This document shows, piece by piece, positions 2,812 through 51,397 of a stretch of DNA of 64,000 nucleotides (position 1 is the stretch's first letter; the number at the start of each line of letters is the position of its first letter). The stretch covers positions 18,811-82,810 of the forward strand of contig CAVIDY010000002.1 of assembly GCA_963641885.1 (NCBI GenBank), given 5' to 3'. A program made the position numbers and the translations under genes. Source of the stretch: Bacteroidaceae bacterium. Lineage in GTDB: Bacteria; Pseudomonadota; Alphaproteobacteria; RF32; CAG-239. The notes under the pieces were generated by a model that had not been told where the DNA came from, did not search any database, and saw only the letters and a program-made list of their open reading frames with translations.

Positions 2812-2863
2812 TCTTGATTTTTGACGGACAGAGTTTATCTCCTGACTTGGAAGGAGATTTAGA

Positions 2864-3466
2864 ATGACACATTGTATAGAACAAGACAGCTTAACCCGCC
2901 GCCGCTCCGTTTATGCGCTTGGACACACGCGGGTTGTCACGGATTTTTGTTTGGAAGACACCTTAAAGGACTGCTTAAAAAATTGCCCGACGCCGTTTAA
3001 TGCACAGTCGGCGCGGCTTGTGCTTTTACTCAATAAAAAACATTTAGACTTTTGGAATTTGGTTCTGCAAAAAGTTTTGGAAGTTACTCCGCTGGGCAAA
3101 AAAAGCAGCGCAGAACAAAAAATAAATTCATTTGCGGCAGCCTATGGCACAATTCTATATTTTGAAGACACCAATATTTTAGCACAGCTGCAAAAAGATT
3201 TTCCTCTCTATCAAAAAAATATGCACGACTGGACTTTTGAAGCCAATGGAATGCTGCAATATATGGTTTGGCAGGCTTTGGCAGAAAATGAAATAGGTGC
3301 CTCGCTGCAACATTATAATGAGCTGATTGAGGAAGATGTCAAAAAAATGCTGGACTTGCCGGACAGCTGGAAAATCTTGTCGCAAATGCCATTCGGCAGC
3401 ATAGAAAAAACACCGGCGGAAAAAACATTTTTGCCGTTGGAAAACCGCTTCAAAATTTTTAAGTAA
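2864..3466 (+). CDS. Nitroreductase-family protein (RutE/YdjA-like NAD(P)H nitroreductase fold)
   Basis: AAGGAG Shine-Dalgarno. TRRRSVYALG...PTPFNAQSARLVLL resembles the TRRS.R.F / PSAxNxQPWRF nitroreductase signature. Confidence 0.55.
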   Translation: MTHCIEQDSLTRRRSVYALGHTRVVTDFCLEDTLKDCLKNCPTPFNAQSARLVLLLNKKHLDFWNLVLQKVLEVTPLGKKSSAEQKINSFAAAYGTILYFEDTNILAQLQKDFPLYQKNMHDWTFEANGMLQYMVWQALAENEIGASLQHYNELIEEDVKKMLDLPDSWKILSQMPFGSIEKTPAEKTFLPLENRFKIFK

Positions 3467-3468
3467 AG

Positions 3469-4050
3469 TTATTTATGATTAAGTTTCATACCGAGCTGGT
3501 TAGAAAATTCGGCAATGCCTTTTTTGAAAAGCACTCCGATTAAATCGGCAACCAAGTCGATATTGGCTTCCAAATTTGCTTTATCAGCTTTAGAAAAGCC
3601 GGAAAGAACGTGATTGACAATGCTGTCGGCATCGCGGTTTTGCGGGTGTCCGATACCAATGCGAATCCGATTATAATTAGGAGTAATGCAGGAATCTATG
3701 CTTTTTAAACCATTGTGCCCGCCAGCACCGCCGCCGAGTTTGGCTTTTATTTTATCAGTTGGTAAATCCATATCATCATGAATAACCACAATATTCTGCG
3801 GCAAAATTTTGTAAAAGTTAGCCGCCTTGACAACGCTGTTGCCGGAAAGATTCATAAATGTTTGCGGTTTCAGCAAATAAACTTTCTCGCCATCAATATT
3901 TCCCTCGGCAATCAGACCGTCAAATTTAGAGCGGAACGGCGAAAAATTATAGCGGCGATGAAGTTCATCAGCCGCCATAAATCCAACATTATGGCGGGTA
4001 GCCGCATATTCCGTTCCCGGATTACCTAAACCAACCACCAAAAACATCAT
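3469..4050 (-). CDS. pth: Peptidyl-tRNA hydrolase
   Basis: MMFLVVGLGNPGTEYAATRHNVGF...HNGLKS are canonical Pth motifs. Confidence 0.92.
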   Translation of the reverse strand: MMFLVVGLGNPGTEYAATRHNVGFMAADELHRRYNFSPFRSKFDGLIAEGNIDGEKVYLLKPQTFMNLSGNSVVKAANFYKILPQNIVVIHDDMDLPTDKIKAKLGGGAGGHNGLKSIDSCITPNYNRIRIGIGHPQNRDADSIVNHVLSGFSKADKANLEANIDLVADLIGVLFKKGIAEFSNQLGMKLNHK

Positions 4051-4056
4051 TACACC

Positions 4057-4347
4057 TTATTTACGCATAAAATCAACGTGAATAGGCTTGTCAGAAACTG
4101 GATGGAATTGAACGTCTTGGCAAACAGTTTTAACTTTTTTGCCTTCAACATCAACAACAATTTCAGATTTGTAAAAATCTCTCAAATCAAGAGCTTTTTC
4201 CAATTCCACAGGGTCAAGACTGATTAAAACAGCATCTTTTTTACCACCATAAATAACGGCAGGAATGCGACCCTCACGACGACATGCACGAGCTGCCCCC
4301 TTACCTGCTTTTTCACGCTTTTTTGCATTAAAAGTAATTTCTGTCAT
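4057..4347 (-). CDS. rplY: 50S ribosomal protein L25 (short form)
   Basis: A 96-aa protein KKREKAGKGAARACRREGRIPAVIYGG typical of L25. It is adjacent to pth, the conserved pairing. Confidence 0.85.
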   Translation of the reverse strand: MTEITFNAKKREKAGKGAARACRREGRIPAVIYGGKKDAVLISLDPVELEKALDLRDFYKSEIVVDVEGKKVKTVCQDVQFHPVSDKPIHVDFMRK

Positions 4348-4503
4348 TTTTGTATCCTTATATTTAAATTAACACTCGACGACCTCCAGGGGTGTCGCCG
4401 ATAACGGCTTTGTACAACAAAAAAGCCAAAAATTCAAGCCTTTTTAATAAAATTTTATGATTTTTTTGTTATATTCCGCTCAAGTAAATTTACGGAGGTT
4501 TCT

Positions 4504-5217
4504 ATGTTATACATTTTAGCGGGCTTTGTGTTTGGCTGTTTGATTCCCTATTTAGCGCGCCGCCTTGGCAAATTGATGCCAGCGACCATGGGTTATATTC
4601 TGCTCAAAATTTTTATTCCGCAGCATTATATGCCGTGGAGCAAACTGAAAAATGACTTTGAATATATGGAATTATTTAAAAGATATATGATGAGAAGCTT
4701 GGGCTGGGGAATTTTCTGCGCCGCCGCCACCTATTTGTTTGCCGTAAATTTTGACCCGTATTACACTGGCTGGTACATTGCCTTTTTATGGATTATGCTG
4801 CTGCTGGTGGAAATCGACAAGCGCTTTATGCTGCTGCCGGATATTTTGACCCTGCCGCTGCTGGTTTTGGGCTTCGGCTATGCGGCAGTCAACGGCGTAT
4901 GGCTGGATACGATTGACCCGCAGCTTATCAGTAATGCGCAAAACAGCTTTATGGGCGCTTGTGTCGGCTATTTGATGCCGGTTGTCGCCAGTATGTTTTT
5001 GGTTTGGAAATATCCGGACGCGTTCGGCGGCGGCGACATTAAGCTTTTGGCGGCTATCGGCGCTTGGGTTGGCTTAGAGCCTGTTTCATACATTTTGCTC
5101 GGATCCTGCATTTTGTTTGCCTTGGGCTGTGCCATAAAAAAACAGAGAGTCGGTCCATTTGGTCCGTCGATTGTCTACGCCACTCTGCTGGTTTGTATTT
5201 TCTTGTTTGGAATTTAG
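4504..5217 (+). CDS. A24-family prepilin (type IV leader) peptidase, lacking the N-terminal Cys-tetrad/methyltransferase region
   Basis: The conserved catalytic-Asp motifs are present: VEIDKRFMLLPD and FGGGDIKLLAAIGAWVG. It is a multi-TM protein. Confidence 0.85.
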   Translation: MLYILAGFVFGCLIPYLARRLGKLMPATMGYILLKIFIPQHYMPWSKLKNDFEYMELFKRYMMRSLGWGIFCAAATYLFAVNFDPYYTGWYIAFLWIMLLLVEIDKRFMLLPDILTLPLLVLGFGYAAVNGVWLDTIDPQLISNAQNSFMGACVGYLMPVVASMFLVWKYPDAFGGGDIKLLAAIGAWVGLEPVSYILLGSCILFALGCAIKKQRVGPFGPSIVYATLLVCIFLFGI

Positions 5218-5310
5218 CAAAAAAAATTCACTGGCTTCTTGACATCGCATTTTGTGAACACTAACTAAACAAGTAGTGAATTATAAAACTATTTGTTTAG
5301 GAGTATTAAA

Positions 5311-5598
5311 ATGAACATCAAACCTTTACACGATAAAGTTTTAATCAAACGTGTAGATGAAGAAACAAAAACCGCTGGCGGTATCATTATTCCGGACACA
5401 GCCAAAGAAAAACCGTCTGAAGGCGTGGTTGAGGCTGTGGGCAACGGTCGTGTTGCTCCAGACGGCAAAATTATCGCTTTGTCTGTTAAAGCCGGCGACC
5501 GCGTGCTGTTTGGCAAATGGGCGGGCACAGAAATTAAAGTTAACGGCGAATCCCGCTTGATTGTTAACGAATCTGATATTTTAGCAATTATAGAATAA
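5311..5598 (+). CDS. groES: Co-chaperonin GroES
   Basis: [14 protein letters not shown]...; AGGAG Shine-Dalgarno at 5298-5302. The ORF-track start at 5293 is TTG and has no Shine-Dalgarno. Confidence 0.95.
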
Positions 5599-5612
5599 TC
5601 TGCGAAAGGTGA

Positions 5613-7259
<1,647 letters not shown>

Positions 7260-8399: not shown

Positions 8400-11300
8400 T
8401 TACCATGCTTCGTTATATTTCAACGTTGGGTCATTCAACCTATTTAAATATTTACCATTAGTCGAATCAACCTTTTCATAATCAATTGCACCTGTCATAT
8501 CCTGCATATATTTATAGCCATCTACAAAGTAATCTTTTTCTGCACTATCTTCATAGCCATGAAATAGGTTTGTTCTATCAAAGTAGCAATATACCGTTGC
8601 ATATCCTTCTATTGATCCTCTCAATACCGGAAATACATTCCAATAGTAACTTTCTATTTTATTGTTACTTGGGGTAGTGCCTATAAATGCATCATACTTA
8701 GATTTAGGATACAAAAATCCAATAATTGCTGACCAACCTTGATAAATACCTTTTTCACTCTTTAATTTAGTCGTCAGAGCTTTTAATCTTGTGCTTTGTT
8801 GGAACATCAACGGCGCAGATGGTTGATAAGAAGCATTAGATTGTAGAACATAAGTACTTGTTTTTACGTTACTGATATCAGCAGTGCCTTTTTCAGCACC
8901 TACAGTTACAGGTATTGTAGTAGCAGTAGTACTATCTTTATCAACCACCATACCGACTTTACTAAATGACGGTCTATCCGCTGGAGTTGCTACTGCAGTT
9001 ACTTGTTCTTTGCTTGGAGTGTCTGGTAATATAAAATATCTATCATATGTTTTGTCACTAGCTTGAGTACCTGCCCCATGTACTGAGCCTGCTTGCGCCA
9101 TTTCCCAGCTTGCCGGAGTCAAGGTTATCACACGACCATATCCAGGAGGACATTGCGGCGCTGGCACAACCCCCATAAACGGCGATGCCCAACTGTCTTC
9201 TTTGCTCATATCCAATGTCTCATCAGGATCTATATCTTGATTCTTTTTTTGGGCTTCTGAATACAACTCATCATCTGCACTAAAATCCCAATTTCCTACT
9301 TTTGTTTCAGAAATGGTATTGTTAACCACGTAAATACCTTTATTGATAAAGTCAGGTAAAATATCACTCAGACGGGCTCCGCCGCGAGTGGTTAATTTGA
9401 TATCGTGCATAACTGAAGTATACGCCGGATTTACCATATAGGTATCATAAGCAACGTCATGGTTAGATCCATTATAATTACTAAAGTCCTTTGTAGCAAG
9501 TATAGGAAATTCAGCGCCGTATGTTTTATTCGTAACAGCATTACCATTGCTACCATAAGCCAAATTGTTTGCGACAAAGCGGGAGGCGGCAACTACACCT
9601 TTACCCTCTAACGCGCCGGTTGTTGTAGCAGGTTTACTATTTTCTCCGCGGACTTCCATATATCCCTTACGGATATATACAGTACCAGGTTCAGTATCAC
9701 TATAATTATTGGTGGTGCTAGTAGCGCCTTGGTCGATATAAACAAGGTTGGAATAATCACCCGCTGTGCTATTCGGCACGATGTTTACACCGGCTCTTAC
9801 ATTATATTGACCGATAGAAACATGATATTTTCCATTCTCTACACTTTCTGTTCCGCGTCCAACTTGACCGGATTTGGAGTCACCAATAAGAACGTTGCCA
9901 TGCATAGCAATATCATACGGCTGCAGATATCCTGCTTGGTTACTGCCTGCAGAGGTGAACATATCTTGAAAAGCATAGGAGTTTGGATTAGAATTTGCGC
10001 GAACACTAAACACATACCGTCTATCGGCAGTTGCATCATGATAATATAATCCGCCTACACCGATATTAAAGTTAGCGTCAGCCAAATCTACCGAACCTTG
10101 ATTAAACAAAGTTCTTGTCTCGTTTTCTGCTCCCTCAATGGTTAATGTTTTATTTTCCATTATAGATCTAATACCGCCACCGTACAGCACCGAAACAGCT
10201 GGTGCGGCAGAATCCGCTGTTTTATTACCGTGAAGCAAAAATAAGCCCGCAGCTTCATCATTTGCATCAGCTCCACCGGTTGCCAACATAATTTGATTCT
10301 CTCGAAATTCAGCTCCAGTTATGTTGTCATCGCCAGTATTTTGAATTGTGACGCCATCTTCATTGGCGGTCAGCCATTTTTCGCTGTCGTCGATATTTTT
10401 TGAGCCAACTGAAAGCGTTGCCGCACGTATTTTTTGCGTATCCAACTGACGAGTTGCCAACAAACCATCTATTTTAGTGTTTGCACCAACTCTAACCTGG
10501 AATAGCGGACTATTGTTATACGTTATTTCATCTAAATTTGCCCCAGGATATGTAGCACTTTTTATTCCATTTTCTAAGATGACAACTCTATCCTTTATGT
10601 TTGCCTCATTATTTTCAAAAGTATAATATGGCTTCAACTGCATAACATTTCCCATAAAATTCATATCTTCTTTTGTTGCTTTTATGGCATAAGTTCCATC
10701 TGCTCGTCCATCAATATACCCGATTTTCACATCATTCCAGACGTCCACATTTGAAGCTAAATTCACATCTCCCAAGTTTGTCAGCGAGCCGTCGGCTGTG
10801 GCGTTGCCGTTGGTGTCAACCTTAAAGTGGAAGTCTTCAGTTGTTGTGTCGCCCTCTGTAATCAGATTACGTCCAAAGCCCAAACGATTTGCATCGGCTT
10901 TAAATTGTTCTCCCGCCGCAATCAAATTGCCTTGAATAAAGGCGTCCGGTTTGCCGAAACCGTCAGCGATATAAAGTCCATAAGTAGAGTTCTCAATATT
11001 GTCGTTCTCTGCACCAACAATCAAGCTTTTAATATTGCGGATACTAAATGTTTTTTGATGATTTTCATTATTATACACATCGTAGGTATTATCAACACCG
11101 CCCATGTATAAATCCGTGCGCATACTGTTTTTCCACAATGTGTTAGGATCGTTACCGGCATCGCGTCCGCGCTGCAGGTATTTATCCATATCAATTTCGT
11201 TGCCAGTCGCGGCACTGATGGTGTCCGCCGACGCCGTCACAATGGAATATTGAGCCGCATCATCTCCATCGGGAAACACTTCGCTATATTCATCGCCTTC

Positions 11301-11801
11301 AAGTTTCCAAATACCGCCGATACCGCGGGCTTTTTTCTCGCCAGTCACATAACCGCCGCTAGAACCAATCAGCGAGGCAATGCGCGAAGTACGCTCTTGT
11401 CCAATATCGGTGTTGGTTTTAAACAGCGCAAACGTGGTCAGGTTATTTCCCTGTTTGGCAATAGCGATTTCAGGCTTGCCGTAATTATACAGCGCCTTGT
11501 CAATTTTAAAGCCATACGGCAGATACGAATCAATTAACGGTAGATCCAATTTACGGATTTTCTGTGTTTCACCCATATCTGCAATAATGGTGGAGTAGTT
11601 TGCGCCCACATAGTCGTTTGCCGCGTTCATAATAGTGCGAATGGTGGACGCAGTGTTGATGTCTTCTACCTCCATGGTTCTTTCCGCCGACTTTTTATAC
11701 ATGGTCGGGGTAACAACGGCGATAAGTCCCAGCATAGCCAGGGCTTCAATCATCAAACCACCCCTCTGCGCTATAGATTTTGAGATATTACGACGTTTCA
11801 T
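8400..11801 (-). CDS. Giant (1133 aa) secreted protein with a type IV prepilin-like (class III) N-terminal signal; candidate pilus-associated adhesin
   Basis: Strong AAGGAG Shine-Dalgarno 8 nt upstream. The N-terminus MKRRNISKSIAQRG|GLMIEALAMLGLIAVV has a basic leader, a G before the cleavage site, Glu at +5 and a 20-aa hydrophobic segment. The remainder is Gly/Asn/Thr/Asp-rich and adhesin-like. Confidence 0.6.
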   Translation of the reverse strand: MKRRNISKSIAQRGGLMIEALAMLGLIAVVTPTMYKKSAERTMEVEDINTASTIRTIMNAANDYVGANYSTIIADMGETQKIRKLDLPLIDSYLPYGFKIDKALYNYGKPEIAIAKQGNNLTTFALFKTNTDIGQERTSRIASLIGSSGGYVTGEKKARGIGGIWKLEGDEYSEVFPDGDDAAQYSIVTASADTISAATGNEIDMDKYLQRGRDAGNDPNTLWKNSMRTDLYMGGVDNTYDVYNNENHQKTFSIRNIKSLIVGAENDNIENSTYGLYIADGFGKPDAFIQGNLIAAGEQFKADANRLGFGRNLITEGDTTTEDFHFKVDTNGNATADGSLTNLGDVNLASNVDVWNDVKIGYIDGRADGTYAIKATKEDMNFMGNVMQLKPYYTFENNEANIKDRVVILENGIKSATYPGANLDEITYNNSPLFQVRVGANTKIDGLLATRQLDTQKIRAATLSVGSKNIDDSEKWLTANEDGVTIQNTGDDNITGAEFRENQIMLATGGADANDEAAGLFLLHGNKTADSAAPAVSVLYGGGIRSIMENKTLTIEGAENETRTLFNQGSVDLADANFNIGVGGLYYHDATADRRYVFSVRANSNPNSYAFQDMFTSAGSNQAGYLQPYDIAMHGNVLIGDSKSGQVGRGTESVENGKYHVSIGQYNVRAGVNIVPNSTAGDYSNLVYIDQGATSTTNNYSDTEPGTVYIRKGYMEVRGENSKPATTTGALEGKGVVAASRFVANNLAYGSNGNAVTNKTYGAEFPILATKDFSNYNGSNHDVAYDTYMVNPAYTSVMHDIKLTTRGGARLSDILPDFINKGIYVVNNTISETKVGNWDFSADDELYSEAQKKNQDIDPDETLDMSKEDSWASPFMGVVPAPQCPPGYGRVITLTPASWEMAQAGSVHGAGTQASDKTYDRYFILPDTPSKEQVTAVATPADRPSFSKVGMVVDKDSTTATTIPVTVGAEKGTADISNVKTSTYVLQSNASYQPSAPLMFQQSTRLKALTTKLKSEKGIYQGWSAIIGFLYPKSKYDAFIGTTPSNNKIESYYWNVFPVLRGSIEGYATVYCYFDRTNLFHGYEDSAEKDYFVDGYKYMQDMTGAIDYEKVDSTNGKYLNRLNDPTLKYNEAW

Positions 11802-11830: not shown

Positions 11831-12646
11831 CTACTGCTGAACATGGCAGTGTCCGCCGCTATCGGCGTTTCGGTATTTGTCAAATGCAAACAAGCAAGGC
11901 TTGCCCTGCATACACTTTTCTTGAAATGCTTTAGAGGCGTCATCTGATCCAATATAAAAAACCTTCGGAAACACAAAGTTTATATACTTAGCAATTGAAC
12001 CTTTCGCATTTTGCGAATTCTTTTCATACATAATTTGAATTGCCGTACGCCCCACCAAATGGCATTTAGCGGTTGAGCCGGTGCCTTCGCACCACGTCCA
12101 GCCCATATTTTTAACTCCGGAAAGCTCTTTTGCCAAATAGTTGGTAAAATTCGGGGTCGGCGCAACCATTTTTACTTTGCGTGAAGATTCGCCTTCGGTG
12201 ATAGTAACTTCGGTCTCGGTTTTGGAATACCAGCGTTCCGGTATTTTGGCAAAAGAAATGGCATATTTGTTTTTGCTGCCTTCATCGCTGCTGCAACGCT
12301 TTACGTTTGCTCCGTTTTGTATGTTGTCGTCAAAGCAATAAATGGCGTGCGTGGATTCCGTAACGATGTTGTTCATATCATAACCCAAAGGCAGGTTGTC
12401 TTCCATTTTGCTCAGGCAGTTATTTTCTTCTGTGCATTTAAACGGAATGTCATAATTTCCACTTTGCCCGTTATAAATCATTTCGCACTCGGTGCCGCGA
12501 TAAAACGCAAGGTGTTCCGCCCGAAAACGGTTTACTACCGTGGCGGCTTTTATCTCAGTGAATACGCCGGCTTTGTCCTCGCGCGGAGAGGTGTTGAGAA
12601 AACTCAGCGCCACCATTATCGTTGCAAGTAAAATCCAAATATACAT
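11831..12646 (-). CDS. Hypothetical secreted or membrane-anchored Cys-containing protein (271 aa), first gene of the operon with the giant pilin-like protein
   Basis: N-terminal hydrophobic signal MYIWILLATIMVALSFL and AGG Shine-Dalgarno. There is a 30-bp gap to the downstream gene. A promoter-like TTGTGA...TATAAC lies upstream. Confidence 0.55.
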   Translation of the reverse strand: MYIWILLATIMVALSFLNTSPREDKAGVFTEIKAATVVNRFRAEHLAFYRGTECEMIYNGQSGNYDIPFKCTEENNCLSKMEDNLPLGYDMNNIVTESTHAIYCFDDNIQNGANVKRCSSDEGSKNKYAISFAKIPERWYSKTETEVTITEGESSRKVKMVAPTPNFTNYLAKELSGVKNMGWTWCEGTGSTAKCHLVGRTAIQIMYEKNSQNAKGSIAKYINFVFPKVFYIGSDDASKAFQEKCMQGKPCLFAFDKYRNADSGGHCHVQQ

Positions 12647-33056: not shown

Positions 33057-35318
33057 CTAGAGGCTTGTACCAAAGTTCAAGCGGAATACTTCGGTTTTAT
33101 CATAATCGGTCTTACTGATAGGGAAACCAAAGTCAATATCAATTTTACCCATCGGAGACATCCAATCAAAACCAAAGCCGACAGAGCTGCGGATTTTTGA
33201 TGAATAGTCAATCTTTTGCGAATCGAAATTATCAGGTTTACCCAGCATACCGATATCCCAGAAAGTACGACCTTTAATACCAAGTTCGTCCAAACCAATC
33301 GGGAAGGTCATTTCTGCACCGGAATACATCATCCAGTTACCGCCCAAAGCATCGTCTGTGCGTTTATCGCGCGCACCAATACCAGCAAATTCGAAACCGC
33401 GCAAAGTCTGTCCGCCTAAATAGTAGCGGTCGGACAAGCGAACCTTTTCTCCGCTGTAGCCGGCAATATAGCCGCCGGTTGCGAACAGCTTAAAGGTATA
33501 GTAGTCGGCAAGAGTATAGAATTTATAGGCTTTAGCGTCAAATTTATTATATTTATCATCTCCGCCAACACCGGCAAAATCGTTACCAAATGACAGATAG
33601 TAGCCTTCTTTGGTATTGATAGCATTATCGCGTTTATCATATACAAAAGTTTGACCGATTACGGAAGCAGTACTGCTGCCTTCTTCGGCTTTTACAAATT
33701 CAGAAGCATAAGATTTTACGTGATTTACTTCATTCTTACTCAAAGTATAGCGAGCGTAATGATAAAAGTCATCGGTATAATTCCAGCCAAAACGAACACG
33801 TCCGCCTTTGGAGCTTGTATCATAAGATGCTTCATCTTCATAGTCTTGCTCTGTCATAAACAAGTCAGCACCGGCACTCAGGCGGCGTCCCATAAAATAT
33901 GGTTCGGTAAAGCTGATGTCATAATCTTTGGTACGCTGAGAAATACCAATATTAAAGCCCAATTCCTGACCGCGACCGCGGAAGTTGTTTTCGGTTACGC
34001 CAGCTCGCAGCAAAGCACCGTTGGTGGTTGAATAACCAATGCCAACATTAAAGTAACCAGTTGATTTTTCTTCGACATTAACATTTAAATCAGCCTTATT
34101 CGGACCTGTTGGTTCGGTTTGAATATCGACCTTGCTAAAGTAGTTCAAATTTTCAACATTACGGCGGGAATCGCGCAGTTTAGAAACATTCAAAGCATCT
34201 CCTTCGTCCAAGCGAAACTCTCGGCGGATTACCTCATCTAATGTCCGGTCGTTGCCTGTAATGTTAATTCTATCTACAAATACACGCTGACTTTCGGTTA
34301 TATTAAATGTCAAATCGACAGTGCCAGCGGCGTTGTTACGCACCAGCTCCGAATCCACATCAACAAAAGCAAAACCCTTTTTACCCAAAGTTTCGGTCAT
34401 AGCACTAATTGATTTATCAATCAAATCCGCGTTGTACCAATCGCCTGTATCCAATTCCACATCGTCATACAGCGGAGCGGCGTCCACATCTTTAACCTCG
34501 GACTTTATGCTGATTTTGCCGATTTTATAACGCATACCTTCATTCAGCGTAAAGGTCAAAATAAATGACTTTTTATCGGCACTGAGCTCGGCGATGGCTG
34601 ATTCAACTTTAAAATCTGCATAACCGCGGTTTGTATAAAAACGGCGCAGCAGCTCTTTATCATAGTTCATTTTTTCGGCATCATAAGTTTCAGATGAGGT
34701 AAAAATGCGATACCAGCGGCTTTCCTTACTCATAATTTCATCTTGCAAATCAGAGTTGGAATAGTGCGTGTTGCCCAAAAAGTTAATTTTATCAATTTTA
34801 GCAGCTGAACCTTCATCAATTTCATAAATCAAATCAACGCGGCTGTCATCACGTTTAATGATTTTTGGTTCAACTGAAACGGTATAGCGTCCAGTTTTGC
34901 GGTATACGTCCAAAATTCTCTGTACGTCTTGCTGCACTTTAGCCTTGTCATAAATGGAACGAGGACCTAACTGCACTTCGCTTTCCAAAATTTTATCATC
35001 TATTTTATCATTGCCGTCAAACGCGCGTTTGCCTATAACTGGATTTTCTTTTACGTTGATGATTAAAGTGTCGTTTTTTGATGTGTCAAAGTTTACATCG
35101 CTGAACAGCCCTGTGTCATACAAGCGCTTAAACGAACTATCTAACTTGTCTTGCGAAACCGTGGAATTTTGCTTGATATTCAAATATGAAAGCACTGTCG
35201 CTTTTTCCACACGCTGAAGACCGTTAACTTCTATTTTTTTAACCAGCATATCTGAAGCCATTGCTTCAAATGCAAATAAGCTGGTTGCCATTATACCGGC
35301 AAAAAGTTCTTTTTTCAT
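33057..35318 (-). CDS. bamA: Outer-membrane protein assembly factor BamA
   Basis: Signal peptide, POTRA repeats and a C-terminal Omp85 barrel ending ...FGTSL. Confidence 0.93.
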   Translation of the reverse strand: MKKELFAGIMATSLFAFEAMASDMLVKKIEVNGLQRVEKATVLSYLNIKQNSTVSQDKLDSSFKRLYDTGLFSDVNFDTSKNDTLIINVKENPVIGKRAFDGNDKIDDKILESEVQLGPRSIYDKAKVQQDVQRILDVYRKTGRYTVSVEPKIIKRDDSRVDLIYEIDEGSAAKIDKINFLGNTHYSNSDLQDEIMSKESRWYRIFTSSETYDAEKMNYDKELLRRFYTNRGYADFKVESAIAELSADKKSFILTFTLNEGMRYKIGKISIKSEVKDVDAAPLYDDVELDTGDWYNADLIDKSISAMTETLGKKGFAFVDVDSELVRNNAAGTVDLTFNITESQRVFVDRINITGNDRTLDEVIRREFRLDEGDALNVSKLRDSRRNVENLNYFSKVDIQTEPTGPNKADLNVNVEEKSTGYFNVGIGYSTTNGALLRAGVTENNFRGRGQELGFNIGISQRTKDYDISFTEPYFMGRRLSAGADLFMTEQDYEDEASYDTSSKGGRVRFGWNYTDDFYHYARYTLSKNEVNHVKSYASEFVKAEEGSSTASVIGQTFVYDKRDNAINTKEGYYLSFGNDFAGVGGDDKYNKFDAKAYKFYTLADYYTFKLFATGGYIAGYSGEKVRLSDRYYLGGQTLRGFEFAGIGARDKRTDDALGGNWMMYSGAEMTFPIGLDELGIKGRTFWDIGMLGKPDNFDSQKIDYSSKIRSSVGFGFDWMSPMGKIDIDFGFPISKTDYDKTEVFRLNFGTSL

Positions 35319-35333
35319 TTTTTGTTTTACTCC

Positions 35334-36773
35334 TTAGTCAAACCACCGGTTAATTAAGTGCATAACGTCATTCCACGTTGCCAAAACCATAATGGCTAAA
35401 ATTAACAAAAGTCCAAATTTAAAAATATAATCCTTTACTTGAGGCTTTAATTCGCGGCGGGTAATCATTTCACACAAATAAATCACCACGTGACCGCCGT
35501 CCAAAACCGGAACCGGCAAAATGTTAATCAGTCCCAAATTTACGGACAACAGCGCCATAAAATAGATGAATCCGATTAAACCGCCTGTTTTGCTGACATC
35601 ACCGGACATTTCGGCGATGCGGATAATACCTCCGACATCTTTGCCGCCGCGTTGTCCAGTAATCATTTGCCCCACGGCGCGCAAGGTAGTTACAGTCAGG
35701 TCATACGCCTCATAGAAACCTGATTTTACAGCATTGCCGAAAGTCATATTGTCATCGCTCAAAACAATCCCTGGTGTGGATTGAATCCCCAACATTCTGC
35801 GCTTAGTCGGTTTGCTGCCGTCGCCAGCATCAAAAGCGGTTTCTTTCAACACAGCGGTAACTTTCAACGGACGGCGCACTTTTAGTTCAATTTCATCTTC
35901 GGTATGCGCTGCAACATAGTCTTTCAGCTGAATAAAATCTTTAAGCTCAACTCCATTTACGCTGTCGAGCAAATCACCGCTCTGCAAACCAGCTTCCGCG
36001 GCTGGACTGCCAACAACCACATTGCCGACTTCCGCTGGAGAAGGTAAAAGTTCGCCAGTTTTTTTGTCAACCGGAGCAGGCAGAGACATTAAACCTAAAA
36101 TACGTTCTTTTTTAGGCTCTGCCGTGCAGCATGGCACTTCAATTTCTTTTGTAAACAATTTATAAGTCTGCGGTCGTTCAATTTCGACAACCACTTCATC
36201 TGTTGTCGCCAAAGAAATTTCATTGCTGATAGATTGAAAATCCGGAGTTTTGCTGCCGTTTATACTGATGATTCTATCGCCCGCTTTAATTCCCGCTAAA
36301 TCAGCGGCTTCGCCTTCAACCACCGCGCCGACAACCGACGGATAAACTATTTTGCCATAGCAGTAAAAAATACCTATAAACACAACAATCGCAAACAAAT
36401 AGTTAAACGCCGGACCTGCAACCACGATTGCCAATTTTTTCCAGCTTTTTTGATATGGGAAAGCATGTTTTTTATCTTCTTCCGACAGTTCAGCCGTTTT
36501 TTCATCAGAGGTTGAAGAAGAGGCATCGGCATCACCTAAAAACTGGCAATATCCACCTAAAGGAATCGCACAAATCTTCCACTTTGTACAATGTTTATCG
36601 GTGCGGCTCCACAGCTCTTTGCCAAAGCCTATAGAAAAATCGGAAACGGCAACGCCTAAACTGCGGGCAATGATAAAATGTCCAAACTCATGAACAAACA
36701 CCAGCACACCAAGCAGGATAATAAACGGCACAATATAATAAATAATATTTTGCAAAATTTCCATTTTTATCAC
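35334..36773 (-). CDS. rseP: RIP zinc metalloprotease RseP (site-2 protease)
   Basis: HEFGHF motif, PDZ domains and a C-terminal LDGG motif. Confidence 0.9.
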   Translation of the reverse strand: MIKMEILQNIIYYIVPFIILLGVLVFVHEFGHFIIARSLGVAVSDFSIGFGKELWSRTDKHCTKWKICAIPLGGYCQFLGDADASSSTSDEKTAELSEEDKKHAFPYQKSWKKLAIVVAGPAFNYLFAIVVFIGIFYCYGKIVYPSVVGAVVEGEAADLAGIKAGDRIISINGSKTPDFQSISNEISLATTDEVVVEIERPQTYKLFTKEIEVPCCTAEPKKERILGLMSLPAPVDKKTGELLPSPAEVGNVVVGSPAAEAGLQSGDLLDSVNGVELKDFIQLKDYVAAHTEDEIELKVRRPLKVTAVLKETAFDAGDGSKPTKRRMLGIQSTPGIVLSDDNMTFGNAVKSGFYEAYDLTVTTLRAVGQMITGQRGGKDVGGIIRIAEMSGDVSKTGGLIGFIYFMALLSVNLGLINILPVPVLDGGHVVIYLCEMITRRELKPQVKDYIFKFGLLLILAIMVLATWNDVMHLINRWFD

Positions 36774-44388: not shown

Positions 44389-44491
44389 AAAAATGAGCCT
44401 CTGTGGCTCTTTTTTTATGACCTAAAATTAACAGCCACCAAAAAATCCCCAACCGCAAGATTGAGGATTTTTTTGCTGAAAGTGAAAAAAC

Positions 44492-47400
44492 TTACCACTT
44501 GTAGCGGATATTTCCGCCAACGCCCCATGCGTTGTAGCTTGAACCAAAGGTATAGTTACCAAACGCACCAAGCGAGAAGTTTTTAATAATTTCCGCATCG
44601 GCGCCGACTTCAATACGTCCCAAAGTTTCATTTTCAACAGTCTTGTCAAAAGTTGTGTCATTAACTTTGACATTACCGCCATTAGCAATGGTTTGAACTA
44701 CCGATGGTTTGATATAGCCTGTGGTCGGCAACTGGCGTTCATTGTTGAACTGATATTCATATTTGATGCCAGCTTCCAATTCTATATCGTGGATAGTGTC
44801 AAAGCTTACCTCTTTGCCGGTTGAATCTTTGATGTCGTCAAATTTGATATAGTCGTAAGTAGCCTTAATTGACGGCGTCAAAACAGAACGCTGCGAGGTT
44901 TTAACATCATAGCCGACTTCAACCTGTGCGCCTAAATTCAGTCCGTCGGTTGAAGCACTGACTCCATTGTCAGCCTTTATATCAGCACTTTGCACGCCGC
45001 CGTAAACCGCGCCGCTCATAAACAAGTCGCCGAAATATTTACGATAGTAAGCGCCGCCTAAAATGCTGGTAATATCCAATTCACTGCCGTAGTTAGAAAG
45101 AATTTCTCCTTCGCCTTTACCGCTGTTGTCATAGGTGCCGTCGCGGTAAGAGCCAAAGATTCCAAACTGACTGGAAATACTGAATTGATGGTCATATCCA
45201 AAGTCAACTCCGTACATTTTAACATCGGTTTCAATCGGTTTATCAAACGTGCCGGAACGATATACCGGAGTAGCCCAAACACGGTCTTTGCCGCCTAGGT
45301 CTTTAAAGTTGCAGACTCGGTAATTGCATTCATCGCTGTAGCAATTGCAACTGCCTTTATCCAAACGCTCAACGTTAAACAGCAAAGAACGGCTTTGCTC
45401 AATTGCTGAACGAGGCAAATCAATATAAGCAACAACTTCCGGACTCAAGAACTTAGTACGGTAGAAATACCAATCGTTAACCGTGCCGTTTTCATCGTGT
45501 CCGATACCGATTTCATAAATATTGCTGCTGGCTTTAGAAACAAACTTATAGTCATCTAAAGACTGCTCGGATTGAGTTTGCGCAAAATAGATGCGATCGT
45601 CAAGCTCCAGTTTTAAGTTTGTTGCATTGTCAAACGCAATATTAGTGGTGCCGTAAATTTTGTCGTTCACAATAATGCGGTCGGCTTTCAAGTTTGGATT
45701 ATCAACATCAATGCGGATAGTGCCGTTTTCACTTTGCACCGTGTTAATGTTAAAATCTGTCAGCACACCGTCGCTCAAATTCAGCAATCCGGAGTTTTTG
45801 ATAGTATTTGCCAAATCCTTATTTGCCGTGCCGTCATTTGCCTTATAGCTAATTGTCGAACTGGCGGCAATATCAAAGTTATTGTTAGTCAGGCTGTCGC
45901 CGTCATCTAAATTCAAATAAGAACCGGAGCTCAATTTAACTGCCGTATTTTCTAAATTAAGCGTCGGCTCATAGTCTATATATCCGGTTGTACCAATATT
46001 TAACTGCGTGTTGGCAATGTTATAGGTACCAGTGCCGCCAAAGGTTGAGTTAAGAACAATCTGCGTTTGCGGCTGGTCAGGAGTATCGCCAGTTATGCTG
46101 ATTGTACCAAGGTTATAGACATCGTCTGACGCAGTGTTGAACACCAGCTTTGCCGTGTCAGATAAAGTGAAATTCATATTGCCTGCGGTTTCGTTATAAA
46201 TAGCGCCGCCCAAACCGCCGGTGGCGCTGTTGCCATCAAAAGTCAAAGACGAGCCTTTTTTCAGACCGGCGTTGAATATAGCGTGACCGGAATTATATAC
46301 CGCTCCGCCTTTTTCCGCTTTGTTGGCGCTGAAATTTATGCTTGCCGCATTGGTTACGTCGTCGGTTTGCAAAGTGATTTTACCTAAGTTATAAATCGCT
46401 CCGCCGTTTTCTCCGGCTGTGTTGCGGACAAATTGCACGGTTCCGTTATTACCGACCGCCAATTCAATGTTGCCGAGCTCATAAGTTCCGGTGGTTTGGT
46501 CTAAGTTACCGGCGTTTGCCCAAGCGCCGCCGTCAACTCCGGCCGAGTTATCGCTGAAAGAAAGCTCATAGCCGTCCGAAACCTTAAAAATCATACCGTC
46601 TTCATCGGCATAGTTATACATTACACCGCCGTATTTATTTGCTTTGTTAGCAGTAAAAGCAATGTTTCCTCCGGTCGCGTTCACGGTTAAGCGGGCAATT
46701 TCTCCGTCTGGGTTGTTAGTGCCAGTTCCGCTTGCCGAGTTTGCCAAAGCTCCACCATAGTCGGCTTCATTTTGTTTGAACAATATGGTATGACCATTTT
46801 CGGTAACAATATCCAGCTGCCCCAAGTTGTCATTAGTGATGGCGCCGCCAATACCTTCTCCCGTAGCGGACAAAGCTTTGTTGCCGGATAATTCAACATC
46901 GGAATCACGGGCAATCAGCCGCAAGCGGCTTAAATGTCCTGAATTATTTGCACCTTGAGCTCGGTTATAAATGGCACCGCCTTCAGCGCCGCCGGCAGCG
47001 CTGATAACCTGATTGTTTTTAAAAGAACTGTCAATAATACTGCTAATTGGAGAGGTATTTTCACCCTCTGCCGTGGAATTTGCAAAGGCGCCGCCATACG
47101 CTATTTCTTCTTGATACGTTGAACGCGCATAGTTATTTTCAAACACAGAACCGATGATGGTTATTTGTCCCTCGTTATATACAGCTCCGCCCAAAACGTA
47201 ATTTTTGTTATTTACAGCATAGTTATTGCTAAAAGTCGCGCCTTTAATTTCGGCAACGCCTGTTAAACCATTCCCCAAGGCTCCGCCTTTAACGCCGACG
47301 CTGCCGTTAACGTGGTTGCCGTCAAAGACCAATCCGCCGTCGGTCGCCGTTAAAGTGCCGTCATTATAAAAAGCACCGCCATACACACCGGTATTGGTTG

Positions 47401-48709
47401 TTGTGCCGACGCCTTGCAGGCTGTTGCCGGAAAACAAAGTGTTGCCGGTAAGGGTATATGTTCCGCCCTGCGCGTTATAAACGGCGCCGCCGAATGCAGT
47501 TGCGGCTTCGGCATAGTTATTGCTGAAATTATTTTCATTGGCGGTATAAGTGCCGCTGTTGGAAACAGCGCCACCTTTTGCCGTGGTGGTCGCTTTGCTG
47601 TAATTGTTTGCGAAAACACTGCCGGAAACGAAAATTACACCATTGTTATAAACAGCACCGCCCTCTCCCAGCTCATCGCCGACCACATAGTTGCCGCTAA
47701 AATTGGTGCCGCCGTTGTTGGTTATGGTCAAATTACCGGTAACGCCGTTTTCGATACCATTATAAACCGCGCCGCCCTGAGCCGTTGTTCCTTTGGCAAA
47801 GTTAGATGTAAACGTATCATTTTCCGAAACAAAAGTGCCGCTGTTATAAACCGCGCCGCCCATGGCTTTTTCAGTGGTTTTACCCACAAACTGCGTTAAC
47901 AAAGTGTTGGTCGAAGAAGTTTCATTTGCCGCATAGTTGCCGGTATATTGGTTATTCTGAGACAACAAATAGCCTTTATCCGTATCATCCAAGGCAAAGT
48001 TAGAAACCGCACCGCCGGAAATTGTTTTTTCACCCATTACATAGTTGCCGGTAAATTTGCTGTTGCTGATAACATTGTCCTGGTTATTGCTGTAATTGGC
48101 AATCGCACCGGCCGTAACCATTCCGGTCGGGTTATTGGCGCTGGCACTGTTATTTTCGAAGGTAGTATTTACAATTTTTATCAGCGGCTGCGTCCCGATT
48201 TCATCTTCATCGCCAACCACAAAAACACCGCCGCCGACCTGATTCATTAAAGCGCGGGTATTGTGTTTGTTAGAAATGATAACACCGCCGGTTACTTCCG
48301 AGATTTGTCCGGTGGAAGAATCATATTTGTAGCCGGTGTAGACATTACCGTTATCAAATATCCAGGCACCGACCTTAAATTGAGTTGGGTCAGAACCTTC
48401 CGAAAAAAGCTCCTGCGTGTAGTTTTGGTCAATAAACAAAGTGCCGATAGACTGCTTGTTGTCTCCGGTATCGGTACTGATTGTGGTTCCCATATAGTCT
48501 TTGAGATAGCCAACAGTCAGTTGACCTTTAGCATCCAAATTCCCTGTATTGCTGGTGTTGGCTGTTTGATTAGAATTCCAATCATCTGCAGCCACCGGAA
48601 ACGCCGCAAGCAAAGAGGCGGCAACCAAATTCAGCATAAAGCATTTTTTCAAAACACTGCGATATTGCGCGTTTAACAAACCTAAAGTGTGGCTATGAGC
48701 TTTCATCAT
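44492..48709 (-). CDS. Autotransporter with a Pmp-type (polymorphic membrane protein) repeat passenger: about 18 GGA[ILV] and 15 FxxN motifs, an extended signal peptide and a C-terminal beta-barrel
   Basis: GGGAGA Shine-Dalgarno. Extended signal MMKAHSHTLGLLNAQYRSVLKKCFMLNLVAASLLAAFPVAA. Recurrent GGAVYN / FSNNYA units. C-terminal about 280 aa has alternating amphipathic strands ending ...NIRYKW. Confidence 0.75.
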   Translation of the reverse strand: MMKAHSHTLGLLNAQYRSVLKKCFMLNLVAASLLAAFPVAADDWNSNQTANTSNTGNLDAKGQLTVGYLKDYMGTTISTDTGDNKQSIGTLFIDQNYTQELFSEGSDPTQFKVGAWIFDNGNVYTGYKYDSSTGQISEVTGGVIISNKHNTRALMNQVGGGVFVVGDEDEIGTQPLIKIVNTTFENNSASANNPTGMVTAGAIANYSNNQDNVISNSKFTGNYVMGEKTISGGAVSNFALDDTDKGYLLSQNNQYTGNYAANETSSTNTLLTQFVGKTTEKAMGGAVYNSGTFVSENDTFTSNFAKGTTAQGGAVYNGIENGVTGNLTITNNGGTNFSGNYVVGDELGEGGAVYNNGVIFVSGSVFANNYSKATTTAKGGAVSNSGTYTANENNFSNNYAEAATAFGGAVYNAQGGTYTLTGNTLFSGNSLQGVGTTTNTGVYGGAFYNDGTLTATDGGLVFDGNHVNGSVGVKGGALGNGLTGVAEIKGATFSNNYAVNNKNYVLGGAVYNEGQITIIGSVFENNYARSTYQEEIAYGGAFANSTAEGENTSPISSIIDSSFKNNQVISAAGGAEGGAIYNRAQGANNSGHLSRLRLIARDSDVELSGNKALSATGEGIGGAITNDNLGQLDIVTENGHTILFKQNEADYGGALANSASGTGTNNPDGEIARLTVNATGGNIAFTANKANKYGGVMYNYADEDGMIFKVSDGYELSFSDNSAGVDGGAWANAGNLDQTTGTYELGNIELAVGNNGTVQFVRNTAGENGGAIYNLGKITLQTDDVTNAASINFSANKAEKGGAVYNSGHAIFNAGLKKGSSLTFDGNSATGGLGGAIYNETAGNMNFTLSDTAKLVFNTASDDVYNLGTISITGDTPDQPQTQIVLNSTFGGTGTYNIANTQLNIGTTGYIDYEPTLNLENTAVKLSSGSYLNLDDGDSLTNNNFDIAASSTISYKANDGTANKDLANTIKNSGLLNLSDGVLTDFNINTVQSENGTIRIDVDNPNLKADRIIVNDKIYGTTNIAFDNATNLKLELDDRIYFAQTQSEQSLDDYKFVSKASSNIYEIGIGHDENGTVNDWYFYRTKFLSPEVVAYIDLPRSAIEQSRSLLFNVERLDKGSCNCYSDECNYRVCNFKDLGGKDRVWATPVYRSGTFDKPIETDVKMYGVDFGYDHQFSISSQFGIFGSYRDGTYDNSGKGEGEILSNYGSELDITSILGGAYYRKYFGDLFMSGAVYGGVQSADIKADNGVSASTDGLNLGAQVEVGYDVKTSQRSVLTPSIKATYDYIKFDDIKDSTGKEVSFDTIHDIELEAGIKYEYQFNNERQLPTTGYIKPSVVQTIANGGNVKVNDTTFDKTVENETLGRIEVGADAEIIKNFSLGAFGNYTFGSSYNAWGVGGNIRYKW

Positions 48710-48784
48710 AAAACATCTCCCATAAATTTGCCTTATGCTAACGCAAATTTATTAAGAAATATCTAAAAGCAGCGTCAATTTTTG

Positions 48785-49843
48785 CTAATTGGCAATATAT
48801 ACGACCTGATTAAACACATTTTCTAAAAAGAACAGGCTGATAAAGCAAATCGCCATGGAAATTACCGGAGCGGCAACCCAGCCGACCATAATCTTTCCGA
48901 CAATCGTCCAGTTTATACCGCGTCCGCCCTTCAAAAGCCCCAAGCCGACAATCGCACCGATAACCGCTTGCGTGCTGGAAACCGGCACCAATGGTAAAGA
49001 CGGCAGCGCATGGCTTTCCAGCCAATTATGCAAAGTTACTGATGAAAACAGCAACAAAACAATAGCTTGCGACAGCACCACAATCCACGCCATAATCGGC
49101 GTCATTTTCATCAGGTTGTTGCCAACCGTCATAATGATTTTTTTAGAATATGTCAAAATACCGACGCTGACCGCCACCGCACCTAAAAAGAAAAGCACCT
49201 GTTCCGGAGTAAACGTAGCAAAACTGCCGATTTTCAGCGGCTTAAACGGACACGATTCTACAAACATTCCCACTGCGTTGGCAATATTGTTAGCGCCCAA
49301 AGCATAGGCGCTGATGGCAGCTGTCACCACCAAGCCGATACGGGTGATTTGGTCTTGCATCAACAGATGAACGTGCGAATATTTTAAGATGCGCTTGAAG
49401 ATAAAATATAAAATTACCGCAACCACACCGGAAAGCATAGGGCACACTGTCCACGTGGAACAAATGCGAGCCAATGTTTGCAAATCCGTGGTTTTACCAG
49501 CGTATAAGTTCCAGCCGATAATGGCTCCAACCACCGCCTGCGACGAAGAAACGCTTAAACCAGTGCGCGCCATTGAATAAACCGCCAAAGCCGCCGACAG
49601 CGCCACCATAAAAGCTCCAGCCAAAGCATTTACCGCACCCAAACTACCCAAGGTTTTGCTAGTGCCAGCGCCGCCGTACACCGCTCCCAAAATCACGAAA
49701 AAGCAGGAAATTAAAGCTATGGTCGTAAAGCGAACCATTTTGGAGCCGACCGCCGTTCCAAAAATGTTTGAAGCGTCATTTGCCCCCAAAGACCAGCCCA
49801 AAAACAAGCCGCTGCTTAAATAAAATAAATAGCTGATGTCCAT
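48785..49843 (-). CDS. PiT-family inorganic phosphate transporter
   Basis: GANDASNIFGTAVGS and a second GANNIANAVG PHO4 repeat. Confidence 0.85.
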   Translation of the reverse strand: MDISYLFYLSSGLFLGWSLGANDASNIFGTAVGSKMVRFTTIALISCFFVILGAVYGGAGTSKTLGSLGAVNALAGAFMVALSAALAVYSMARTGLSVSSSQAVVGAIIGWNLYAGKTTDLQTLARICSTWTVCPMLSGVVAVILYFIFKRILKYSHVHLLMQDQITRIGLVVTAAISAYALGANNIANAVGMFVESCPFKPLKIGSFATFTPEQVLFFLGAVAVSVGILTYSKKIIMTVGNNLMKMTPIMAWIVVLSQAIVLLLFSSVTLHNWLESHALPSLPLVPVSSTQAVIGAIVGLGLLKGGRGINWTIVGKIMVGWVAAPVISMAICFISLFFLENVFNQVVYIAN

Positions 49844-50665: not shown

Positions 50666-51397
50666 ATGAAAAATTTTTCAATAATTCTTTCTACTGTCGC
50701 TGTTGTTTTAGCTGCAGCCGCTTTGGTTTGCAGCCTGAAATGCAAAACGACCGGTACAGCTGCTCCGACTGCCAGCGTTGAAGAAGCTCTTAAAGCCAAC
50801 CCTAAAATGGTTGTAGACGCTTTGCAGGCTTACCAAATTCAACAACAAGAAGAACAAAGAAAAGCTGCTGAAGAAGCATTAAGCAAATACGTTCCAGAAA
50901 TCAACTCTTCGGCAAACGCTCCGTTTGTTGGTCCGGAAGACGCTAAAGTAACCGTTGTGGAATTTTTTGACTTTTCTTGCCACTTCTGCAAGAGATTAGC
51001 TCCGGCTTTGGAAGAAGTTATGGCTAAAAACGCCGATGTTAAATTTGTGTTTAAGCCATTGTCTTTTGTTGATCCGGAAAATTCTCACTATCAAGCTCAA
51101 GCTGGTTTAGCAGTTTATAAACAAGGCAAATTCATTGACTTTTACAAAGCTTTGATGGCTGCAGAAGGCAGAGTTACAAAAGACACTGTTGATGGTATTG
51201 CCAGAGGTTTGAACATTGACTTTGACAAATATAAAGCCGATGTAGAATCTGCTGAAGTTAACAGCAACTTGGATGAAATTTTCAGCTTATCTCAAAAAAT
51301 TCAAGTTAACGGCGTTCCGACTGTAATTGTTAACGGCAAACACATTCAAACTATGCGCGCCAAAGATTTACAAGCCGCTATTGACGCTGCAAAATAA
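50666..51397 (+). CDS. DsbA-family thiol:disulfide oxidoreductase
   Basis: Signal/anchor, then VVEFFDFSCHFCKRLAP CxxC active site. Confidence 0.75.
   Translation: MKNFSIILSTVAVVLAAAALVCSLKCKTTGTAAPTASVEEALKANPKMVVDALQAYQIQQQEEQRKAAEEALSKYVPEINSSANAPFVGPEDAKVTVVEFFDFSCHFCKRLAPALEEVMAKNADVKFVFKPLSFVDPENSHYQAQAGLAVYKQGKFIDFYKALMAAEGRVTKDTVDGIARGLNIDFDKYKADVESAEVNSNLDEIFSLSQKIQVNGVPTVIVNGKHIQTMRAKDLQAAIDAAK

Follow-up and report, generated by a model that had tools for sequence, protein, structure and literature searches.

The stretch of DNA analysed here (the window), 64,000 nt of contig CAVIDY010000002.1 (assembly GCA_963641885.1, positions 18,811 to 82,810), encodes on its minus strand, at 44492..48709, a 1405-aa protein that is a classical type Va autotransporter with polymorphic membrane protein (Pmp)-type repeats. 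Both the architecture and the secretion route are firmly type Va. Taken as a whole, the locus is best explained by a type Va autotransporter with a beta-helical passenger built of Pmp rungs, which serves as an adhesin-like, variable surface protein and has been diversified by recombination, an account that we consider probable. The protein class, its mechanism of secretion and the wide distribution of the PF02415 repeat are already established, and the advance made here is incremental; modest interest attaches to the recombination mosaic of the gene, to its synteny with an optional tandem duplication, to a hairpin with four Cys residues, and to a signal extension that is specific to the family.

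Architecture of the autotransporter

The gene is a complete coding sequence, a single ATG-started open reading frame (ORF) with its stop codon at 44492-44494 and a GGGAG ribosome-binding site 7 nt upstream of its start, and its product is identical to protein P0001 in NCBI assembly GCA_963642415.1. Four hidden Markov models (HMMs) match this protein, all above their curated cut-offs. From Pfam these are PF03797 (Autotransporter; aa 1159-1382, E 4.4e-26, 92.6 bits, cut-off 26) and PF02415 (Chlam_PMP; four stretches, E 7.3e-13, 47.7 bits, cut-off 20.6), and from NCBIfam, TIGR01414 (aa 985-1405, covering profile positions 7-432 of 432, E 8.8e-29, 100.8 bits, cut-off 16) and TIGR01376 (POMP_repeat; E 8.3e-6, 25.4 bits, cut-off 15). 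The original prediction, which called this gene a PF02415-type repeat autotransporter in an alphaproteobacterial context, is borne out in its first part by these repeat and autotransporter models and in its second by the record titles of the orthologue loci described below.

The 12-strand beta-barrel translocator occupies aa 1141-1405 (44495..45289, minus strand), as indicated by PF03797, a structural model and Foldseek comparison. AlphaFold2, using a 52-sequence alignment, modelled the C-terminal 402 residues (pLDDT 89.6, pTM 0.83) as 12 long strands (aa 1141-1404) preceded by a helix (aa 1090-1105). The top matches of this barrel in the PDB are all type Va translocators, namely AIDA-I (4mee), which is the best match, EstA (3kvn), EspP (3slj), NalP (1uyn; target-normalised TM-score 0.77, rmsd 2.8 A), BrkA (3qq2; target-normalised TM-score 0.80) and Hbp (3aeh). 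The protein ends in NIRYKW, with W1405 invariant in 23 orthologues, so that the expected C-terminal barrel ending in Trp is found in the model as a pore helix and 12 strands closed by a terminal Trp. The alpha-helical linker itself (aa 1090-1105, PEVVAYIDLPRSAIEQ; 45395..45442, minus strand; model residues 87-102) lies in a model that aligns to solved translocators having a pore helix. Upstream of it, the passenger-translocator junction (aa 861-1089; 45443..46129, minus strand) is a beta-helix of non-Pmp type, recognised by the beginning of the TIGR01414 match at aa 985 and by beta strands in both models; this region of 230 aa has a column identity of 0.63 and probably represents an autochaperone-like region.

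Between the pore helix and barrel strand 1, the alignment and the model place a Cys-rich hairpin (aa 1119-1133, GSCNCYSDECNYRVC; 45311..45355, minus strand), in which C1121, C1123 and C1133 never vary and Cys prevails at position 1128, and which is modelled as two short strands at a lower pLDDT of 65-81. We know of no discussion of such a Cys-hairpin insertion for the solved translocators. Outside this hairpin and C23 of the signal peptide, the autotransporter is nearly free of Cys, and a DsbA-like gene at 50666-51397 is a conserved neighbour.

At the opposite end of the protein, direct reading of the sequence agrees with the prediction of an extended, autotransporter-style signal peptide. The first 41 residues (48587..48709, minus strand; MMKAHSHTLGLLNAQYRSVLKKCFMLNLVAASLLAAFPVAA followed by DD) comprise a charged extension of ~23 residues, a 16-residue hydrophobic core and a cleavage-like site, VAA-DD. 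The extension follows the pattern HxHxxGLLNAQYRSVLKKCF, which is kept in 23 orthologues and in a tandem paralogue, and M1, K3, G10, L12, Q15, Y16, R17, L20, K22, C23 and N27 of the signal peptide are invariant across these orthologues. The non-repeat cap that follows (aa 42-140; 48290..48586, minus strand), delimited by column identity and by the model, in which it forms a helix and irregular strands, is the most variable part of the protein, with a mean column identity of 0.38.

The Pmp-type repeat region extends from aa 141 to 860 (46130..48289, minus strand) and consists of about 20 rungs, each with GG[AV]x and mostly with FxxN, as delimited by the motif table, the four PF02415 stretches and the AlphaFold2 model. 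The GGA and FxxN motifs are real and far above chance. Strict GGA[ILV] occurs in 14 copies (mean 0.35 and maximum 4 in 2000 residue shuffles), and FxxN occurs in 19 copies, 17 of them in the passenger (6.5 +/- 2.4, maximum 14, in the shuffles); GG[AV]x is found 20 times within aa 141-834 and GGAx 18 times, with 17 copies in the passenger and one in the barrel. The two motifs alternate, with mostly 16-25 residues from a GGA to the next FxxN, and the full repeat from GGA to GGA spans 28-44 residues (median ~33), giving a rung of ~32 residues. The alternation that had been proposed is therefore real, whereas the proposed periodicity of 20-25 residues describes the half-repeat. Similarly, the description of the passenger as built almost entirely of repeats applies to aa 141-860 and is a mild overstatement for the whole, in which the cap and the junction are non-repeat.

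A model of aa 42-1010 (AlphaFold2, 33 sequences) predicts an all-beta rod of short strands with high confidence (pLDDT 91.5, pTM 0.89), in agreement with the expected beta-helix, and the best passenger fold matches found by Foldseek in the PDB, all of them weak, are right-handed beta-helices: Ag43, TibA, Hap, Fap2 and PL6 lyases. According to this model, the ~1050 residues of the passenger make up a long beta-helix; the ~20 rungs would lie in its central 720 residues, with GGAxxN and FxxN motifs stabilising them from buried positions. Conservation among the 23 orthologues is 78% at motif positions vs 38% at non-motif positions, which fits structural motifs with variable loops, as in Pmps, in which buried motifs build the rungs and variation falls in the loops (PMC10715098).

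Recombination and synteny at the locus

The gene is a hot spot of divergence, and its passenger is a mosaic. Relative to the closest genomes compared (L018 and L020), nucleotide identity is 93-97% in the flanking genes, 71-82% over passenger aa 100-500 and 94-96% over aa 900-1405. The corresponding dS values are 0.21-0.30 for the flanking genes, 0.54-0.59 for the repeat region, rising up to 0.89 at aa 301-400, and 0.25 for the barrel, such that passenger dS is 2-3 times that of the flanks. Such an elevation of dS indicates import of sequence and not simply rapid evolution of the protein. The ratio dN/dS (omega) is 0.01-0.07 in the flanking genes, ~0.2 in the passenger and 0.02-0.03 in the barrel; the value for topA relative to the more distant genome L031, a frame artefact, was left out of this comparison. 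In a three-way comparison, the proportion of informative sites at which the window sides with L031 is 13-25% in the flanking genes, 66-84% at aa 101-500 and 80% at aa 701-800. The max-chi2 statistic of 290 vs a permutation maximum of 24.8 (0/200) delimits a recombinant segment at aa 63-830 (46220..48523, minus strand), which is also evident from dS and from sliding nucleotide identity, and within which nearest-neighbour relations reverse. The exposed part of the protein has therefore been diversified by homologous recombination between related lineages and not by slipped-strand phase variation, while the barrel and junction evolve at the background rate of the genome. Reshuffling of this kind would be expected of a surface adhesin or antigen on which selection acts. 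The suggestion that the gene is recombinogenic thus holds in the form of an allelic mosaic between lineages and fails for recombination via internal repeats, which at the DNA level are 33-nt stretches coding for GGAxYN with 60-76% identity.

Full-length orthologues with 37-87% identity are numerous in metagenomes. We found 31 orthologue loci in species-representative genomes, which are species-level metagenome-assembled genomes (MAGs) from gut or rumen, most of them titled uncultured Alphaproteobacteria or Proteobacteria and originating from human gut (Hadza, Nepal and others) or from deer, yak or cattle rumen. In ~20 loci the gene order is kept, with DsbA facing one way and PhoU_div, PHO4 and the autotransporter gene following each other in the other direction; because this synteny extends through ~20 species of the clade, the gene is ancestral there. 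On its other side, infA, topA, dprA and plsY come next in the window and in its three closest relatives. Ten loci (L002, L003-L008, L011, L013 and L017) have ~3.7 kb between PHO4 and the orthologue. In L002 this space, at 2388-5975, codes for another Pmp-repeat autotransporter, which is 1195 aa long, has 34% identity to the window protein and bears the same signal extension. Such a tandem paralogue of ~1181-1195 aa is present in a related metagenome group, and in six of the ten loci, checked by sequence, the C-terminus of a paralogue lies 8-30 nt before the start of the orthologue. A tblastn search of the 64-kb window with the protein finds the gene itself alone, one copy at the locus; the genome of the window has lost, or never gained, the tandem copy at this locus.

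The records of L004, L005 and L018 (CAVKTH01, CAVGVF01 and CAVEOB01), near-identical human-gut bins whose flanking proteins are 85-99% identical, bear the implausible titles 'Bacteroidaceae bacterium', 'uncultured Eubacteriales bacterium' and '[Ruminococcus] gnavus', which are likely due to mislabelling or bin contamination in the source records.

Relation to chlamydial Pmps and other systems

The window protein shares with the type Va autotransporters AIDA-I, EspP, NalP, BrkA and Hbp a putative signal peptide, a beta-helical passenger, a pore helix, a 12-strand barrel and a C-terminal aromatic residue. It differs from them in that its passenger rungs are of the GGA/FxxN kind and not pertactin-like or AIDA-type repeats, in the Cys hairpin between the pore helix and strand 1, and in its conserved signal extension, which is not the ESPR of Pfam (PF13018; no match at E<=1 in the 1405-aa protein). 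With chlamydial PmpA-I and Pmp1-21 it has in common the autotransporter architecture, the alternating GGA[ILV] and FxxN motifs, for which a buried position in the beta-helix rungs is predicted, and a polymorphic passenger (PMC10715098), as well as a paralogous tandem copy in some relatives of the window organism. However, every Pmp has a six-rung 'middle region' (PMC10715098), and the corresponding domain PF07548 gave no match at E<=1 in the window protein, where aa 861-1089 belong instead to the TIGR01414 junction. Furthermore, the chlamydial core, GGA[ILV]-x(14,18)-FxxN followed by 4-5 residues to the next GGA (PMC11166332), fits only 2 of the ~18 rungs when applied strictly, whereas a relaxed pattern fits 18. 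Measured from start to start, the chlamydial spacing is GGA-18/22-FxxN-8/9, while the rungs of the window protein are mostly GGA-16-FxxN-12/13-GGA or GGA-23/24-FxxN-8/10-GGA. The first of these types prevails at aa 284-580 (in full, GGA-16/19-FxxN-12/16-GGA, the distance from FxxN to GGA in N-half rungs being 12-16) and the second at aa 620-840 (GGA-23/33-FxxN-8/10-GGA). Finally, chlamydial Pmps number 9-21 per genome in obligate intracellular chlamydiae, as opposed to one or two copies per locus in a gut-lumen alphaproteobacterium.

An exhaustive phmmer search with the passenger against 1.84 billion cluster representatives returned 458 proteins at E<=1e-3, only 19 of them at E<=1e-30. Among 34 distant relatives sampled from these, PF02415 is present in 20, PF03797 in 9 and PF07548 in none, and their repeat consensus, GGAIYNxGxIxxIxGxFxxNxAx(5-7)GGA, equals the N-half rung of the window protein. 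Less than one-third of PF02415 proteins are chlamydial (PMC11166332), and similar motif helices have been described in Methanobrevibacter, Phycisphaerae and Trichomonas (PMC10715098). These non-chlamydial proteins, from >100 species in Pfam and accounting for >2/3 of the family (PMC11166332), share the repeat consensus with the window protein, and analogous beta-helices have been reported for them (PMC10715098), although many are without an autotransporter barrel, as reflected by the 9 of 34 sampled relatives with PF03797. The window protein is thus a proteobacterial-type autotransporter using the widespread PF02415 rung and does not strictly qualify as a chlamydial Pmp, because it has no middle domain, only two rungs with core spacing, and no PF07548 in any of the 34 sampled relatives. 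Of the original designation 'Chlamydia-Pmp-type', the repeat stands; the chlamydial part does not, given the absent PF07548, the different motif spacing and the mostly non-chlamydial membership of PF02415 (PMC11166332, PMC10715098). The protein offers a well-resolved example of Pmp-type rungs as a general beta-helix building block, carried on an ordinary proteobacterial translocator, and no chlamydial speciality. A full-text paper search found neither this gut and rumen alphaproteobacterial orthologue family, with its synteny and mosaicism, nor autotransporters specific to the gut alphaproteobacterial clade.

Function, alternatives and neighbouring features

By the established type Va pathway, the autotransporter would be exported by Sec, its barrel inserted by BamA (encoded in the window at 33057-35318), and its passenger threaded out from C- to N-terminus, folding on the junction region. 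The passenger would then stay bound to the surface as a rod, with the variable inter-motif loops in a position to contact ligands. Experiments have shown that chlamydial Pmps with this repeat act as adhesins (PMC2997323, PMC4287181), and this precedent, together with the fold, the surface location and the pattern of diversification, suggests for the window protein a role as an adhesin-like surface protein with antigenic variability in an uncultured alphaproteobacterium of the gut. Several points weigh against this account. Adhesion is argued by analogy, the signal peptide was assigned by eye, and the passenger may or may not be cleaved off after export. The average omega of the passenger is below 1, and positive selection is for this reason not demonstrated. 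The passenger model has no match in the PDB at E<=1e-3 by Foldseek, and thus no significant solved relative, and a search of PDB sequences with the family profile gave 0 matches, in line with published work, which states that no solved structure corresponds to the Pmp repeat fold (PMC10715098).

An origin by horizontal transfer from Chlamydiae, which would make the protein a true chlamydial Pmp, could appeal to the PF02415 and TIGR01376 matches and to the GGA/FxxN alternation. It is extremely improbable, and was rejected on account of the missing middle domain (absent as well from all 34 sampled relatives), of a motif spacing that conforms to the strict core (pattern of PMC11166332) in two rungs only, and of the conserved synteny in ~20 species of the clade; in addition, the junction and barrel match the general TIGR01414 model end to end, and the GC content of 0.41-0.48 is near the window mean. 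We hold it equally implausible that this is a phase-variable contingency gene controlled by slipped-strand mispairing or by an invertible element; in its favour are only the general tendency of repeat-rich surface genes, from which the original prediction had raised phase variation, and the conserved leader hairpin upstream. Phase variation is not supported because the region 44401-49000 contains no homopolymer of >=8 nt (none >7), no simple-sequence repeat and, according to Tandem Repeats Finder (TRF), no tandem repeats even at score 30; the longest homopolymers it contains are two T7 runs, both of them downstream of the stop codon. Likewise, a repeat finder detected no flanking inverted repeats of the invertible-promoter type, and none of the close orthologues has a broken reading frame.

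The nature of the passenger leaves room for two functional alternatives to an adhesin. That it is an enzyme, for example a polysaccharide lyase, is improbable: PL6 alginate lyases and chondroitinase B do appear among the weak Foldseek matches, and 2 distant sequence relatives match pectate-lyase-like Pfam models, but the lyase fold matches are insignificant (E 3e-3 to >1, TM-scores <0.3) and reflect the generic beta-helix. The enzyme was rejected on the ground that no catalytic family matches in Pfam or NCBIfam; moreover, the passenger is without a globular insertion domain, and its most conserved residues are those of the structural motifs. Somewhat less improbable, though still unlikely, is a self-associating autotransporter akin to Ag43, AIDA-I or TibA, which would drive aggregation or biofilm formation rather than host binding. 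Ag43 (7koh, 4kh3) and TibA are the top weak matches of the passenger and AIDA-I is the best match of the barrel; on the other hand, none of the passenger matches is significant, the sequence does not resemble the repeats of Ag43, AIDA-I or TibA, and the extensive allelic diversification of the passenger would need to stay compatible with homotypic interaction. The adhesin-like surface protein is the preferred reading.

A conserved 5′ leader with a hairpin, identified by comparison and folding, lies between PHO4 and the autotransporter gene (48710..48770, minus strand). The 75-nt spacer after PHO4 holds a conserved stretch of ~50 nt (TTTTAGATATTTCTTAATAAATTTGCG...GCAAATTTAT..GGAG); L018, L020 and L031 share ~47-50 nt of it without a difference, despite flanks that diverge by up to 12%, and it also occurs upstream of the tandem paralogue. 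The hairpin has a minimum free energy (MFE) of -20.2 kcal/mol (z = -3.1) and pairs UUUCUU, as an anti-Shine-Dalgarno sequence, with the Shine-Dalgarno sequence; covariation over 11 loci is weak, with a compensatory change in 7 of 20 pairs and a covariation term of -0.14. An Rfam scan of the whole window found only two tRNAs and no match to the leader, and in a sigma-70 promoter scan the counts equalled shuffle expectation, with no site in the spacer between PHO4 and the autotransporter gene. The leader may act as an operator or promoter, or it may control translation. On the downstream side, a consensus scan of both strands revealed a terminator-like GC hairpin flanked by T-runs (44395..44409, strand unassigned), apparently a terminator that the convergent infA and autotransporter genes have in common.

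These features can be joined in a speculative reading, which we regard as rather doubtful. The locus, with its one or two tandem genes downstream of PhoU_div-PHO4, would be the main variable surface adhesin or antigen of the clade, its passenger diversity being kept by allelic exchange between species under pressure from the host (IgA) or from phage, while the leader hairpin would occlude the ribosome-binding site, possibly coupling expression to the phosphate-transport genes. If so, type Va secretion would gain two new accessory features, the family-specific four-Cys hairpin at the barrel base and the non-ESPR signal extension. The gut Alphaproteobacteria of this clade are uncultured and their interaction with the host is almost uncharted; a conserved, recombination-diversified autotransporter provides a concrete candidate for an adhesin or dominant antigen of the clade, and could serve as a marker for strain typing.

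Elsewhere in the window, the gene for BamA, an Omp85 protein with five POTRA domains (33057-35318), adjoins that for RseP, both within 33057-36773 on the minus strand. A Cys-rich ORF of 271 aa without an assigned family (11831-12646, minus strand) is adjacent to an ORF of 1133 aa (8400-11801, minus strand), which likewise has no match in Pfam or NCBIfam. The N-terminus of the latter, MKRRNISKSIAQRGG followed by LMIEALAMLGLIAVVTP, resembles a prepilin-type (class III) signal with a Glu5 pilin helix, and on this basis the 1133-aa product may be a giant type IV pilin-like surface protein.

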